The translations under genes were made by a program, and so were the position numbers. The notes under the pieces are model-generated. The model ran no database searches, had not been told where the DNA came from, and saw only the letters and a list, made by a program, of their open reading frames with translations. A stretch of 64,000 nucleotides of DNA from Pseudogymnoascus verrucosus. Taxonomy: Eukaryota. Positions 8,952-14,064 of the stretch are shown one piece after another. Position 1 is the first letter of the stretch, and each line of letters opens with the position of its first letter. Where the stretch lies: NCBI GenBank assembly GCA_001662655.1, contig KV460217.1; one strand, given 5' to 3'.

Positions 8952-10856
8952 CTAGGTGCTTTTCCTTTCTCCGCCAACTATCCTCCATAGTCCCCTCCAC
9001 CTCCACCCGGATGTATCCCCCTCAACTCCCTCTAGTAACGCCCTCACCCTGTCCTCTCTCCCCTTGATGTCTAGCCCCCTCTCACTTCGGAGCCCCGCGC
9101 CGCTCCCCAGAACCCCTCGGCCCTCCAATCGCAGCGCCTCAAGGATGTATCCCCGTACCGTCCCGATCTTCAGCGGCGGATCCCGCAGCAACCCTGCAAT
9201 GTCCTCAACCGACAGGTCTTCATGTGATGACCAGATATGGTAGGCACGTAAAGCCGCAGGTGCTGCAGTGGTAGAAGGATGCGCAGCGCGATATGAGACT
9301 GCAAAGGCAGCAGCGGCGTCCACTCGAGGGTCGGCAGGTCGCTCGGCCTTCTTTGCAGGGCGCTTGGGTGATTTGGTAGAAGGTTGTGGGGATGAGTCCT
9401 CATCAGTTTCTAGGGGAATAGAAAGGGACGGGTCTTGGGGGGCAGAGCGTGACGTCTTGCGCGGCTCGAGGGCTGCAGTAGCATCATCGAGTGAATCGTC
9501 AACTGTGACGAGTTCGATTCCAGATGCAAGGCGGATGGGGAGGCCAAGTTCGGCGTGGTATGGGCGCGGCGGCGTAGGGCGCAGGGCCTTTCGTTTCGCC
9601 TCGAGGACATCGTACAATATGAACCCGGCATACGCATCACTAGCTGCATACAAAATCTGCTCCATGCTCAGGGCCTCACTCCAATCGCTGCCACGGACCT
9701 CTCCTTTGAAGATGGGGAGGGCAAGATGCTCGGATGCTTGCGATGTGAGCGACACGAGCTTCTTGTTAATGAGAGTTGGATTACGTGCGGCGGAGCCTTC
9801 GATTAGGCGGTGCAGATGGCTTAACTCGAAAATACCGCGCGTATCAACCTTCAGGAATTTCCGCACGCGTGTGCAGTCTGCTTTGATAGCGACCCCACAT
9901 TTGGAAACATTGGGATCCTCAAGGATAGCTTTGAGGGTTGGGGCGACCAGGTCATCGATGCCGTCTTTGGGGAAGAGTGCGAGATGACTTAGGATGATAC
10001 GGTCTTCACAGGCCAGCTGTATAAGGGAAACATTCTTCTTTGGAGAGGAAAATCGAGTCGCGTCGATTTTCCATTCAATGTCGAAGCCAAGGATAGGCTT
10101 GCCCAAGAAGTGCTTCTGAAGCACGGATTCGGTAGTGTGTCGGGACTTGCAATAATGCACTTTGACTTTTGCGTCGTCGGGGCCTGTGTATAGTCTGTGC
10201 GTCCAGAAGGAGTCGGGGGTATCCGGGGTTGCATCTTTGGCTTTCTGGAGGACTTCCGCCGGCATCACAAATGAGAGGGGTGTGTGGACTTCTTCTTCTT
10301 CTTCGGTTGGTTTCGGCTTTTCTGTAATAGCCTCTTGTTGCTGGGAGACCTCGGTTTGAGACGGGTCCGTCTGTAAACCAGCCGTGTCGGGAGCTGAAGG
10401 GGCCCAGCTACTGGAGCTGCTCGGGATGGATTGTGTTCCTTGATCAGATTCCCGTGCTGGTGTCAAGTTTTCCTTGCTTGACAAGGTATAGGTATTCTCA
10501 ATCGTAGCCGTCGACGTTTCTAGTGTGGATAATGTGGTCGTACTGAATGCCCTCGGACTGCTCCCCCGCAGTCCAGTCTCACCATTTCCAAATACGATTC
10601 CTTGGGCTGGGCTCCATAATCTCCCCAGGCTATATGGTCTTGCAGGTGCAGCGGTGGCTCTGTTTAAATGATTATTAGCTTCTCTCCTCACCACGGTACA
10701 AAGGAGCAGCACTTACGGTGGCTTGCCTCTCAGTGCAGCCAGAGAGCGCATCGCATCGTTCGCAAGGCTAGTAGTGCCCGTAAAGCTGCTCATCGAGGTC
10801 TGTGATTTTGCGAGGAGTCTGCTCGATGGTGATACTCCATGATAGCAAAGGCGCAT
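8952..10856 (-). CDS. DEDDy 3'-5' exonuclease (WRN-exo/EXD2-like) with a C-terminal helix-turn-helix-like domain
   Basis: Motifs LGFDIEW, LIQLA, GVAIKAD and SDWS..LSMEQILYAASDAY. ATG 10856; intron 10716-10660 (GTAAGT..AACAG) joins in frame. Confidence 0.85.
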
Positions 10857-11584
10857 GTCGTGGAGTGTCGGATTGACAGGTGGGGGGTTGATGGAATCCC
10901 CACACTCTTGGGTCACCTTGGTCCCCTGGTCGCGTCGGCTTTCGCGTATCGGCGGCAAATGAGTGGCTACCACACGCGTAAAGCGTCGCAGGTATCATTA
11001 TCTCCCATCCAGCTTCTTAAGGGGTGAGAAGATAATAGATGCGTAATTTGTAGTTTGTATCAATACTAGGGATTTAATAAAAGGAAGGTGGTTATGAGAA
11101 TATAATCTATATATACATGAATCAAGTATGACGGTGATATCAGTATTTGATCGAATCGTCCCTAAATACATCCGGCACTCATAAATCAAACGCACGGACC
11201 ATGACTTATTTCAACGTTCCATGGACTTTCGACGGTCGTTCTACTAGCGCCGAATTTGTGTTGGTGATGGAGTTGTTCCGTTCTCGACAACACCAAAATC
11301 GAACATCACCATCCCATAAACACAATTCGGTTGTCAAGCCTCCCCAAACGACCCAACCCAACATCGCTGAGCTGACACCTCGACTAAGCGCTCTGACTGC
11401 TAAATTCACTCCTCTATATTTTGTCCACAATCTGTAAGTTCTTTTTACTTCCTTGCCTACTCTTTCTCTCTCTCTCTCACCACACTTCATATTGGCACAT
11501 ATCACGTGCTGTTCTGTGTCCCCTTTCTCCTCACCAAGACTCCTATTGCAAATCAAATCATTTATTCATCTACCCATCTTCATC

Positions 11585-12363
11585 ATGAGCATTGATATGG
11601 AAAAAACCGATGTCCCTGCCCCTACCTCTCCCTTTGCTCCCCCTGCCTCTACGCTCAAGGAGCGCATCAAAGCAAGGATAATCTCCTGGGGCCATGACCT
11701 TGACGCCCATCTCAGGGATTTCTTCCACGTGTCAGGAGGCCCATACTACTATCAAGTCGCGAAACAAGAGAGTCAGCTTCTCCTCCCTCCCATCTACCCC
11801 GACCTGCCGTTTGTCTCTTTCCTGTCTCCCATCCTCAAGTCTACGGTTCTACGGTCGCACATGGTCATCACAAAGCCCCAGCTAACACTTCACAGAGGTC
11901 AAACGCAACGGCAAGAAAAAGAAGCTCCGTAAGAAGAACCCCGGAAGCAAATACATCTTCATCAACGGCGTCCCCTACCCAAAGCCCAGCGCCTACTACC
12001 CTGCTCCACGCCTCCCCTCCATCTCACCAATCTCAACAATCTCAATCACCTCCGTCACCTCTGTGCAAACCCAACTAACCATCACACAGGCTTGCACCAC
12101 GAGTTCCGCAAGCAAAAAAAGGCTGAGGCTAAGCTTCGAGGTGAACGCTACGTACAGCCTAAGCATCCGTACCGTACCTACAGGGCTTTGAAGTCGCACC
12201 CGGTCTTCTCAGAGAAAGAAAAGGAAGCCGCTGAGCATCAGCACGCCGTCAGCCACTATGACGTCGACGCAATTACTCCCGCTTGGTATGTGCTTGCTCT
12301 TTTGCTTCCCGTTTGACCTTCGTTATGCATAGAGGGATCGTGCGGCGCGCTGACGGAGATAGA
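11585..12363 (+). CDS. Uncharacterised basic protein of about 138 aa, overlapping the LSM5 start
   Basis: ATG 11585. Introns 11772-11895 (GTCAGC..GCTAAC..CACAG) and 11929-12089 (GTAAGA..CTAAC..CACAG) keep one open frame. The stop is TG|A across intron 12286-12362, or TGA at 12314-12316 if that intron is retained. Confidence 0.55.
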
Positions 12364-12786
12364 ACTCATCGATCGCTGTGTCGGAAGTAAGATCTGGGTT
12401 GTCATGAAGACCGACAAAGGTATTTGGACCCCAACTTCGCTCAGCAGCACCGTACCCACACTAACTCTCTGAAGAATTCACAGGCACCCTCACCGGTTTT
12501 GATGACTATGTAAACATGGTCCTGGAAGATGTGACGGAATTGTAGGCCACTTCCCATCCCAACTTCCCAGACCAATACTTACCAATCCCAGCGACTACAC
12601 GGGCGCAACAACAAAGATGGAGAAGATTCTGCTGAACGGGAACAATATCTGCATGGTTCGTTCCCCCCTCTCTCCTCCTTTTGCTCTGGCCCCTTTCAAC
12701 CTTTCCCCAATCTCTACTCATGAGCTGCGGTTAATAAATCACAGCTGATTCCAGGAGGAGAGGGACCATTGGCTTCTGCACCATAG
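12258..12786 (+). CDS. LSM5: U6 snRNA-associated Sm-like protein Lsm5
   Basis: Not in the ORF track. Spliced product is [85 protein letters not shown]. Introns 12286-12362, 12420-12474, 12542-12591, 12656-12743. Confidence 0.95.
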
Positions 12787-13376
12787 ATCGCCTTATGTGG
12801 GTGTCGGGCTGTATAGCAGATAGATGAACGGAATGAGATTATTCTTTAACTTTTGGCTACGTCCGTATATGTGATGATTTGGCCTATTGTGGTGGTTGGA
12901 GCTATAACTACTGTGAATGGCTGCCACGGATTTTGATCCTGGCTGTCATAATGCATGCTGCCGCTATTTTGTGTCGCCAGCGATGTCGCACCCCTTGGCC
13001 ATTACGGTGACAGATTCTCTAACACACAAAACAATCAGCTTCATGATACATATTCTGTTTACCTCTGCAATCACGCGTTTCCCCCTTTATATCACTATGT
13101 TTAGAATCTATCAAATTTAAGGCTCCCGGGATCATTATTCACATAGGATAGATACATAGTCACAAAATATTGAAGACAACATGCAAATCGTTGGAGAAGG
13201 ATATTGCTGCATTGATTTTCCCCCACCGAAAACGTATCAAAGTCCCCAGATACCACGCCAAACCCAACCACCCACCCATAAAACTCCCAACACCCGCTAT
13301 GCATAAACCCCCATACCCATCAGCATCCCACCCTCCCTGAATCCCAATGCCAGTGCCGCAAAGCAAACTGAATCTA

Positions 13377-14064
13377 CTACTGGCCCTGGTTGGTATCCGC
13401 AGCCGCGCCCGTCACCATCTTGCGCAGCTCGAACTCCTTGGTGAATTCACGGCTCAGCTGAGCCAGCTCGGCCACGAGGGATTTGGCGATGCCGATGACG
13501 GCTTCTTTGGGGGTGAGGGTGCCGTCGGTTTGGACGCGGAGCTCGATGGTGGCGAAGAGGGGGTGGGGGACTGGGGAGGGGTCGTTAGTTAGGTTCTGGA
13601 TGCTGTGTGGTGGTGGGGGTGGGGTGAGATACCTCTGTAACCAGCGAAGGTGACGTGAGGGTCTTTGAGCAGGTGGGCGCGCAGGAGGTTGGCCAGGGTG
13701 TGGTCCTCCTTCAAGATGGTAAAGATAGATGAGTTTGGGGTGCCTGTTCGGTCGGATTAGCTCTCAGTTCACGTGTATGAGGTAGAATTGTGGTGAACTT
13801 ACGAGTATCAACAGCCTCAGTGATCTTCTTCTCTCCATCACCCAAGAGGAAGAGTTCGAATCTGTCAGTGATGTTAACTTCCGTTCCCACACGTTGCATG
13901 TGCTCGAAGCGGTCCAGGAGGTGGCTGTCAGGATTGAAGCTGGCCATCGTGTTGGGGGGGCGGTTGTAGACCGATTTGAGGTTGGCAAGCTCGACCTCAA
14001 GGCGATTGGGGACGTTGATTAAGTGGGCAGTTTGAATGACAGGATCGTCATAAGAGTAGGCCAT
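13377..14064 (-). CDS. RPB11: RNA polymerase II subunit Rpb11 (start uncertain; N-terminally extended)
   Basis: [15 protein letters not shown]...[41 protein letters not shown]. Introns 13802-13744 and 13632-13571; TAG at 13379-13377. Confidence 0.93.

Follow-up and report, generated by a model that had tools for sequence, protein, structure and literature searches.

Can the leader exons of a core spliceosome and decapping gene also encode a second protein, and if so, from which mRNA would each frame be read? This question is raised by the LSM5 locus of Pseudogymnoascus verrucosus, located in a stretch of 64,000 nucleotides of contig KV460217.1 that is referred to here as the window. An initial annotation had described a three-exon ORF of 138 codons (exons 11585 to 11771, 11896 to 11928, and 12090 to 12285) that runs through the LSM5 start codon at 12258, which lies in the +1 frame, and the sequence contains this ORF as described. 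A bicistronic mRNA or an internal LSM5 promoter had been offered as explanations, and the stop codon of the ORF, built by splicing of LSM5 intron 1, had been considered a possible feedback device.

LSM5 and the overlapping reading frame

The LSM5 coding sequence comprises five exons on the plus strand (12258 to 12786), supported by contig joints and by Pfam LSM hits on relatives. Its introns extend from 12286 to 12362, 12420 to 12474, 12542 to 12591, and 12656 to 12744, and the stop codon at 12786 terminates a product of 85 amino acids. The spliced product corresponds to the C-terminal part of protein record P0003, a part that shares 79 to 84% identity with named Lsm5 proteins from several ascomycetes. 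The Pfam LSM domain (PF01423) was detected in the relatives' proteins with E values of about 1e-18 to 1e-20. By these matches, the 85-amino-acid product is identified as Lsm5, with an Sm/LSM domain and its highest identity to annotated Lsm5. The protein starts with MTSTQ, MTTTQ, or MATQ in Pseudogymnoascus and with MASQ in most of the other ascomycete records examined; a 3-nt length change at this start (12258 to 12285) leaves both overlapping frames intact.

LSM5 exon 2 (12363 to 12419) is identical at 57 of 57 positions between the window and L001, a metagenome locus that was the sole DNA relative compared, and it is also identical in the contigs of runs X1, X8, and X16. The other LSM5 exons differ from L001 at 14 of about 40 synonymous sites (contrast with exon 2, P of about 0.02). 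Conservation between the window and L001 also extends to the stretch ahead of the branch point of intron 1. A stable common fold was looked for in intron 1 plus exon 2, and none was found. At the other end of the gene, the spliced contig of run X16 stops at the donor of the last LSM5 intron (12656 to 12744), and the public models P0032 and P0033 read into this intron, which may be retained in some relatives.

The stop codon of the ORF arises as initially annotated. Removal of LSM5 intron 1 (12286 to 12362) joins TG|A (12284, 12285, and 12363), a joint that is present in four of four contig runs, and retention of the intron would add 10 residues to give 148 amino acids. The splice-made stop looks largely incidental, since TG|A consists of the end of an LSM5 leucine codon and the first base of exon 2, a second in-frame stop follows nine codons on, and the tails encoded by the retained intron vary. 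In protein records of relatives, these tails differ in both length and sequence. Of the records that extend to the next residue, all 14 have W or C there and thus preserve the TG ahead of the intron 1 donor. No evidence was seen for the splice-made stop acting as a feedback device. In our reading, the splicing decision that matters is the one between donors 11434 and 11772, upstream of this stop.

Transcripts and splice donors of the LSM5 unit

Spliced contigs were analyzed in four runs (X1, X5, X8, and X16) of the 24 listed; no listed run is recorded as RNA, and the four were judged to be RNA derived from their GT..AG joints. Run X1 matches the window almost completely; the other three, X5, X8, and X16, represent a relative, organism C, and not the window's own allele. 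In all four runs, position 11433 is joined to 11896, which excises the first exon of the ORF together with its AUG. The shorter side of this joint comprises 33 letters in X1 and X5 and 27 letters in X8 and X16. The long leader intron that is removed (11434 to 11895, 462 nt) extends from a distal donor, GTAAGT, to a common acceptor, CAG, and contains ATGs at 11585, 11597, 11610, 11694, and 11861. Record 6 of run X16 proceeds from 11404 through five joints to 12655.

The leader of this mRNA comprises a first exon with an ATG count of 0 (11311 to 11433, the 5' end being the contig limit), a common exon of 33 nt (11896 to 11928) that would be coding in an ORF mRNA, and, after removal of intron 2 (11929 to 12089), the common exon 3 (12090 to 12285). 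The latter is composed of a conserved core to about 12184, a fast-evolving tail, and the 28-nt dual-frame overlap. At the 3' end, the untranslated region covers at least 12787 to 13086, as judged from the relative in run X5 (record 10). Over at least 324 nt, the leader is free of ATGs, compared to 3.7 expected from base shuffles (probability of zero, 0.02). The matching stretch of L001 contains no ATG, and the common exons encode no methionine among 694 residues in nine proteins. In the frame of the ORF, the 11433|11896 junction creates a T|AG stop. The mRNA seen in four of four runs encodes Lsm5 alone, because removal of the 462-nt intron takes out every upstream AUG.

The spliced contigs support the placement of the ORF and LSM5 in a common transcription unit. 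Neither of the explanations offered initially is needed: all four runs show an ordinary Lsm5 mRNA whose path lacks an upstream AUG, which dispenses with a bicistronic mRNA, and the leader begins upstream of the whole ORF, which dispenses with an internal LSM5 promoter near 12258. The accompanying remark that there is no room for an LSM5 promoter applies directly upstream of 12258 but not overall, as the leader exons reach at least to 11311 in run X5.

The neighbors of the LSM5 locus are a WD40/NLE gene, a divergent 3'-5' exonuclease gene, a convergent RPB11-like gene, and a nitronate monooxygenase gene. The exonuclease gene (PF01612) occupies the minus strand from 8952 to 10994, head to head with the LSM5 unit, and a gap of about 300 to 450 nt separates it from the first exon of the unit. 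A candidate divergent promoter region for both was placed at 10995 to 11310 from the ends of the minus-strand exonuclease frames (10712/10994) and from the 5'-most spliced contig piece, which starts at 11311 (run X5, record 7) and, as a contig, cannot reveal the true transcription start. The promoter of the Lsm5 mRNA probably lies upstream of the whole ORF and is common to the divergent exonuclease gene.

The first coding exon of the ORF (11585 to 11771), whose AUG has an A at position -3, would be kept only via a proximal donor, GTCAGC, or via an internal start. Use of the proximal donor, which gives rise to a short form of intron 1 (11772 to 11895), is indirectly supported. Two internal junctions of the ORF had been proposed for checking. 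The joint that removes 11929 to 12089 was present in all four runs; the joint of 11771 to 11896 was listed in none of them, and no contig connects these two positions. It should be noted that contigs drop rare variants, so that an unlisted joint is not equal to an absent joint, and that run X1 has no cover over 11585 to 11771 and was not counted as absence.

Record 5 of run X16 covers 11404 to 11771 and ends on the last base ahead of the proximal donor. In the same run, record 6 stops at 12655, directly ahead of an LSM5 donor that is confirmed in other runs, and both records start 30 bases ahead of the distal donor. We read these contig ends as forks in the 31-mer graph. A contig would end by chance at the single donor that had been predicted with a probability of about 1 in 460 and ahead of any GT with one of about 18 in 462. 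The bases of the proximal donor are identical in L001, and the residues across it are the same in five of five unnamed read-through proteins. In runs X5 and X8, low-depth contigs run unspliced through 11772. Contig depth over exon 1 ranged from 3 to 19.5, versus 189 to 919 on the spliced path, a contrast that is a hint only, as contig depth is no measure of isoform level. A conserved block of the ORF extends across 11771|11896 and so takes in sequence that the Lsm5 mRNA loses as intron. Because this block spans the junction of exons 1 and 2, only a proximal-donor mRNA could translate all of it. The same junction sequence is carried by 16 named Pseudogymnoascus protein records, retrieved with exon 1, exon 3, and Lsm5 as queries, in which it represents gene prediction and not displayed cDNA.

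In intron 2, the first 75 nt (11929 to 12003) are identical to L001 at 65 of 75 positions, compared to 329 of 466 in the other introns (P = 0.003). They are in frame with exon 2, similar residues occur in the public models P0001, P0033, P0132, and P0133, and run X1 contains an unspliced fragment of intron 2. A second form of the ORF protein that retains intron 2 may exist; the dN/dS of 0.65 for 11929 to 12003 is not decisive.

Conservation and properties of the predicted orphan protein

The product of exon 1 and the start of Pseudogymnoascus verrucosus VE01_03205 share 100% identity. Among the 16 named records, 13 are modeled as Lsm5 fusions and 3 are not; the RefSeq entry "lsm5" XP_024325237.1, with 264 amino acids, is one of the fusion models. 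An in-frame fusion of the ORF to Lsm5 via other acceptors, as drawn in public models, was rejected, no such joint being listed in the four runs. A profile search of 1.84 billion representatives, in which the profile covered exon 2 with one sequence only, yielded 11 hits, 10 of them of Pseudogymnoascus type. The eleventh, the Diplonema repeat protein P0130, matches the tail only, through a repeat, and was dropped.

Pattern searches of metagenome contigs gave 237 matches that led to a single locus, L001, and 28 matches in viral contigs led to no locus. The 52 matches in prokaryote contigs led to one locus, L002, which was dropped as an 8-residue chance match followed by a stop. By eye, the N terminus of the ORF was found in none of the 26 long Lsm5 records from outside Pseudogymnoascus (31 records examined; 120 listed of 486). 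As far as these searches extend, the ORF appears in one genus only, Pseudogymnoascus, and unannotated relatives may exist in sister genera. A literature search, with subscription papers and supplements outside its scope, found no paper naming both Pseudogymnoascus and LSM5 and none on the locus.

In an alignment of nine members, the mean pairwise identity was 0.38 for the N terminus, 0.68 for a predicted helix, 0.88 for a block containing a GGPYYYQ motif, 0.93 for exon 2, 0.88 for the core part of exon 3, and 0.52 for the tail. Eight of the 12 columns of the GGPYYYQ block are invariant in the nine proteins. At the DNA level, 31 of the 33 bases of exon 2 are identical to L001. Exon 1 of organism C carries an in-frame deletion of 15 nt.

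Selection was measured on one sequence pair, the window and L001, and the core was defined as exon 2 plus 12090 to 12184 (42 codons), a boundary set after the protein alignment was seen. Eight synonymous and no nonsynonymous differences were found in the core (Sd 8, Nd 0; dS 0.39, dN 0; Fisher P = 1.8e-6). Its other two frames gave 1 synonymous and 7 nonsynonymous differences and 0 synonymous and 8 nonsynonymous differences, respectively. LSM5 showed 14 synonymous and 0 replacement differences (dS 0.35, dN 0). Over the whole aligned ORF, pS was 0.27 and pN was 0.13 (P = 0.008); exon 1 alone had a dN/dS of 0.53, which is not significant (Fisher P = 0.25), and the tail had a dN/dS of 1.6.

Judged from this pair, the core is under purifying selection as a protein, as tightly as LSM5. 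The constraint would act on the protein and not on the RNA, because synonymous divergence in the core is normal and equal to that of LSM5; constraint at the RNA level would lower it. The dN/dS comparison, which the initial annotation had put forward as a check, thus came out in favor of a conserved coding ORF (8 synonymous and 0 nonsynonymous changes in the core, one pair). The tail, in our reading of the same data, is neutral and dispensable. In L001, a 1-nt deletion at about 585 to 592 ends the ORF directly after the core, ahead of the LSM5 start. This deletion may be real, in which case the overlap would not be universal, or it may be an error in a low-coverage contig; the first letters of L001 resemble a sequencing adapter.

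An Rfam scan of 10800 to 13400 with E values up to 5 returned a single snoRNA match at chance level. Folding gave z scores from -1.23 to 1.25 for the long intron, the leader, the core, the regions of both alternative donors, the beginnings of intron 2, and LSM5 intron 1 together with exon 2.

The core is strongly basic, with 17 K/R and 3 D/E in 42 residues, and from this composition we would guess at nucleic acid binding, or at a role in the nucleus or on ribosomes, for the product. No Pfam family was found for the ORF protein. PDB sequence searches returned nothing at an E value under 0.26, and the family profile matched 0 PDB chains at E values up to 10. AlphaFold models were of low confidence (mean pLDDT of 52.8 and 34.2). 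FAM177 (PF14774) came out on top in two language-model feature searches with different members, scoring 0.75 and 0.84, where the tool's mark for an informative match is 0.9. Pfam scans with E values up to 10 gave no hit to PF14774 in the nine proteins or in the nine alignment members, and FAM177 membership is a lead only. A match to ribosomal protein eL32 (PF01655) was rejected; it occurred in one of nine members at E = 0.04, with 14.6 bits against a cutoff of 25. As part of the explanation that we prefer, we consider it fairly probable that the product is a real, genus-restricted small protein.

Proposed alternative mRNAs from one transcription unit

We favor, with moderate confidence, the explanation that competition between 5' splice sites of the first intron lets one transcription unit produce two mutually exclusive mRNAs, one for Lsm5 and one for an orphan basic protein. 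The distal donor at 11434 excises 462 nt and with them all upstream AUGs, which yields the Lsm5 mRNA with its AUG-free leader. The proximal donor at 11772, to which the contig-end footprint and the conservation point, would retain the AUG at 11585. According to scanning rules, ribosomes on the proximal-donor mRNA would read the 138-codon frame over the LSM5 start, and little Lsm5 would be made. This mRNA is probably sensitive to nonsense-mediated decay (NMD), because the stop of the ORF lies 56, 123, and 187 nt ahead of further exon junctions and more than 500 nt from the 3' end. In Neurospora, stops upstream of introns can trigger NMD (PMC7746235). The choice of donor would in this way set the output of Lsm5 against that of the orphan protein.

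Mutually exclusive mRNAs could also result from promoter choice, if transcription of the ORF mRNA began internally, within the C/T-rich tract at about 11434 to 11584, which we consider unlikely. C/T-rich tracts are typical of fungal core promoters, this one is 72% C+T, and it is directly followed by the AUG at 11585 with A at -3. However, pyrimidine-rich tracts are normal in introns too, and the low-depth contigs that cover this one start at the first-exon fork (11404 in X8 and X16) and are continuous with upstream RNA.

It seems just as doubtful that the core is a cis-acting, ribosome-stalling regulatory peptide on the LSM5 mRNA, perhaps with some low-level translation on the main mRNA from a near-cognate codon at 12092 (window, TTG; L001, CTG). 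Such a peptide would suit a conserved polybasic core that ends in a proline-containing motif and is followed by a neutral tail, with the stop of L001 just past it. The conserved block of about 50 residues, however, starts in exon 1 and so in sequence missing from the main mRNA, the main junction places a stop directly ahead of exon 2, and codon 12092 has a C at -3 in both the window and L001.

Still less probable is a frame that persists as a relic or by-product, whether of open leader exons, of splicing enhancers, or of a decaying gene absorbed into the LSM5 leader. The unlisted joint of exon 1, the neutral tail, the frameshift in L001, and the failure to find a family, a fold, or a credible relative outside the genus would all agree with this. 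They are opposed by the core, in which eight of eight changes are synonymous at a synonymous divergence equal to that of LSM5, and by the lack of an unusual RNA fold (z scores of 0.35, 0.59, and -1.23) or a credible Rfam match. The true bicistronic mRNA of the initial annotation, on which the AUG at 11585 would serve the ORF and leaky scanning would serve Lsm5, is the least probable of all, since such an mRNA would carry four AUGs ahead of LSM5, three of which have a purine at -3, the overlap of the frames rules out reinitiation, and a monocistronic Lsm5 path is present in four of four runs, even though AUG-rich leaders and leaky scanning are described for filamentous fungi (PMC7049704) and SNURF-SNRPN offers a precedent on an Sm-family gene (PMC2645379).

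For competing donors as we propose them at LSM5, the closest layout is that of fungal NMT1 and THI4, where a leader intron contains a uORF with one donor before it and one after it, and the donor used determines whether the main gene is produced (PMC5882874 and PMC3597705). In the type I switch described there, a single acceptor is paired with both donors. Splicing from the far donor takes out the upstream AUG and allows the main gene to be expressed, and splicing from the near donor leaves in the blocking uORF. Here, the distal half of the two-donor layout is documented by joints in four of four runs, and the proximal half is suggested by conservation and one contig-end footprint. In contrast to NMT1/THI4, the scan of 10800 to 13400 found neither a TPP aptamer nor another Rfam riboswitch, and the main gene is a spliceosome/decapping ring subunit. 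Moreover, the NMT1-type uORF is short and nonfunctional according to both sources (PMC5882874 and PMC3597705), whereas that of LSM5, at 138 codons, continues through two more exons and over the main start and shows protein-level conservation. With no TPP aptamer match in that scan and a long, protein-conserved upstream frame, the LSM5 locus does not belong to the NMT1/THI4 switches.

In mammalian SNURF-SNRPN, one mRNA is described as encoding both proteins (PMC2645379). The loci are alike in that a single transcription unit encodes an Sm-fold splicing protein and, ahead of it, an unrelated small protein. They differ in that the Lsm5 mRNA seen lacks the upstream start and in that the frames overlap. 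A rare LSM5-locus mRNA bearing both complete ORFs is predicted, and none of the contigs displayed it.

The arginine attenuator peptide of arg-2/CPA1 is encoded by a conserved-peptide uORF. The LSM5-leader ORF is similar to it as a peptide-conserved frame ahead of a housekeeping gene, with a likely link to NMD, but it is far longer, is split by introns, has its start codon in an optional exon, and carries its conserved part about 35 codons ahead of the stop. Conservation at the level of the peptide, with dN far below dS, is a mark of conserved uORFs and was found in the core in one pair. The AUG of the ORF is missing from the Lsm5 mRNA seen, in which only near-cognate codons in poor context are left in frame.

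Unproductive splicing with NMD occurs on splicing-factor genes. The arrangement at LSM5 is comparable in that a splice choice on a splicing gene would lead to an mRNA with a stop ahead of exon junctions and a low yield of the factor; it differs in that the unproductive form would encode a protein under purifying selection. Feedback, if real, would more likely act at the upstream donor choice than at the splice-made stop, since the RNA that Lsm2-8 serves, U6, reads 5' splice sites. For Arabidopsis, PMC5499552 reports a role of LSM2-8 in environment-dependent control of spliceosome activity. A bolder proposal, which we regard as improbable when taken as a whole, combines a de novo gene in the Pseudogymnoascus LSM5 leader with a self-regulating switch. 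The level of Lsm2-8/U6 or, these fungi being cold adapted, temperature would set the use of donor 11434 versus 11772, and surplus splicing capacity would lead to an mRNA that shuts off Lsm5 and makes a basic, RNA-binding microprotein, maybe with a second form that retains intron 2, which would act back on splicing or decay.

The LSM5 leader is probably of dual use, with a conserved orphan protein behind an alternative donor, and the locus an either/or gene and not a source of a true two-protein mRNA. The reach of this finding is limited to the one genus in which the ORF was found. Within it, the locus is mismodeled in public records, as 13 of 16 named Pseudogymnoascus records fuse the ORF to Lsm5. 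What this locus would add is a core spliceosome and decapping gene whose leader exons also encode an unrelated protein, with a core constrained like Lsm5. The known fungal donor-switch layout would operate here with no known riboswitch, and its alternative product would be a conserved protein. The locus may serve as a small, testable system for the birth of new genes in leaders and for the control of their own supply by Lsm rings.
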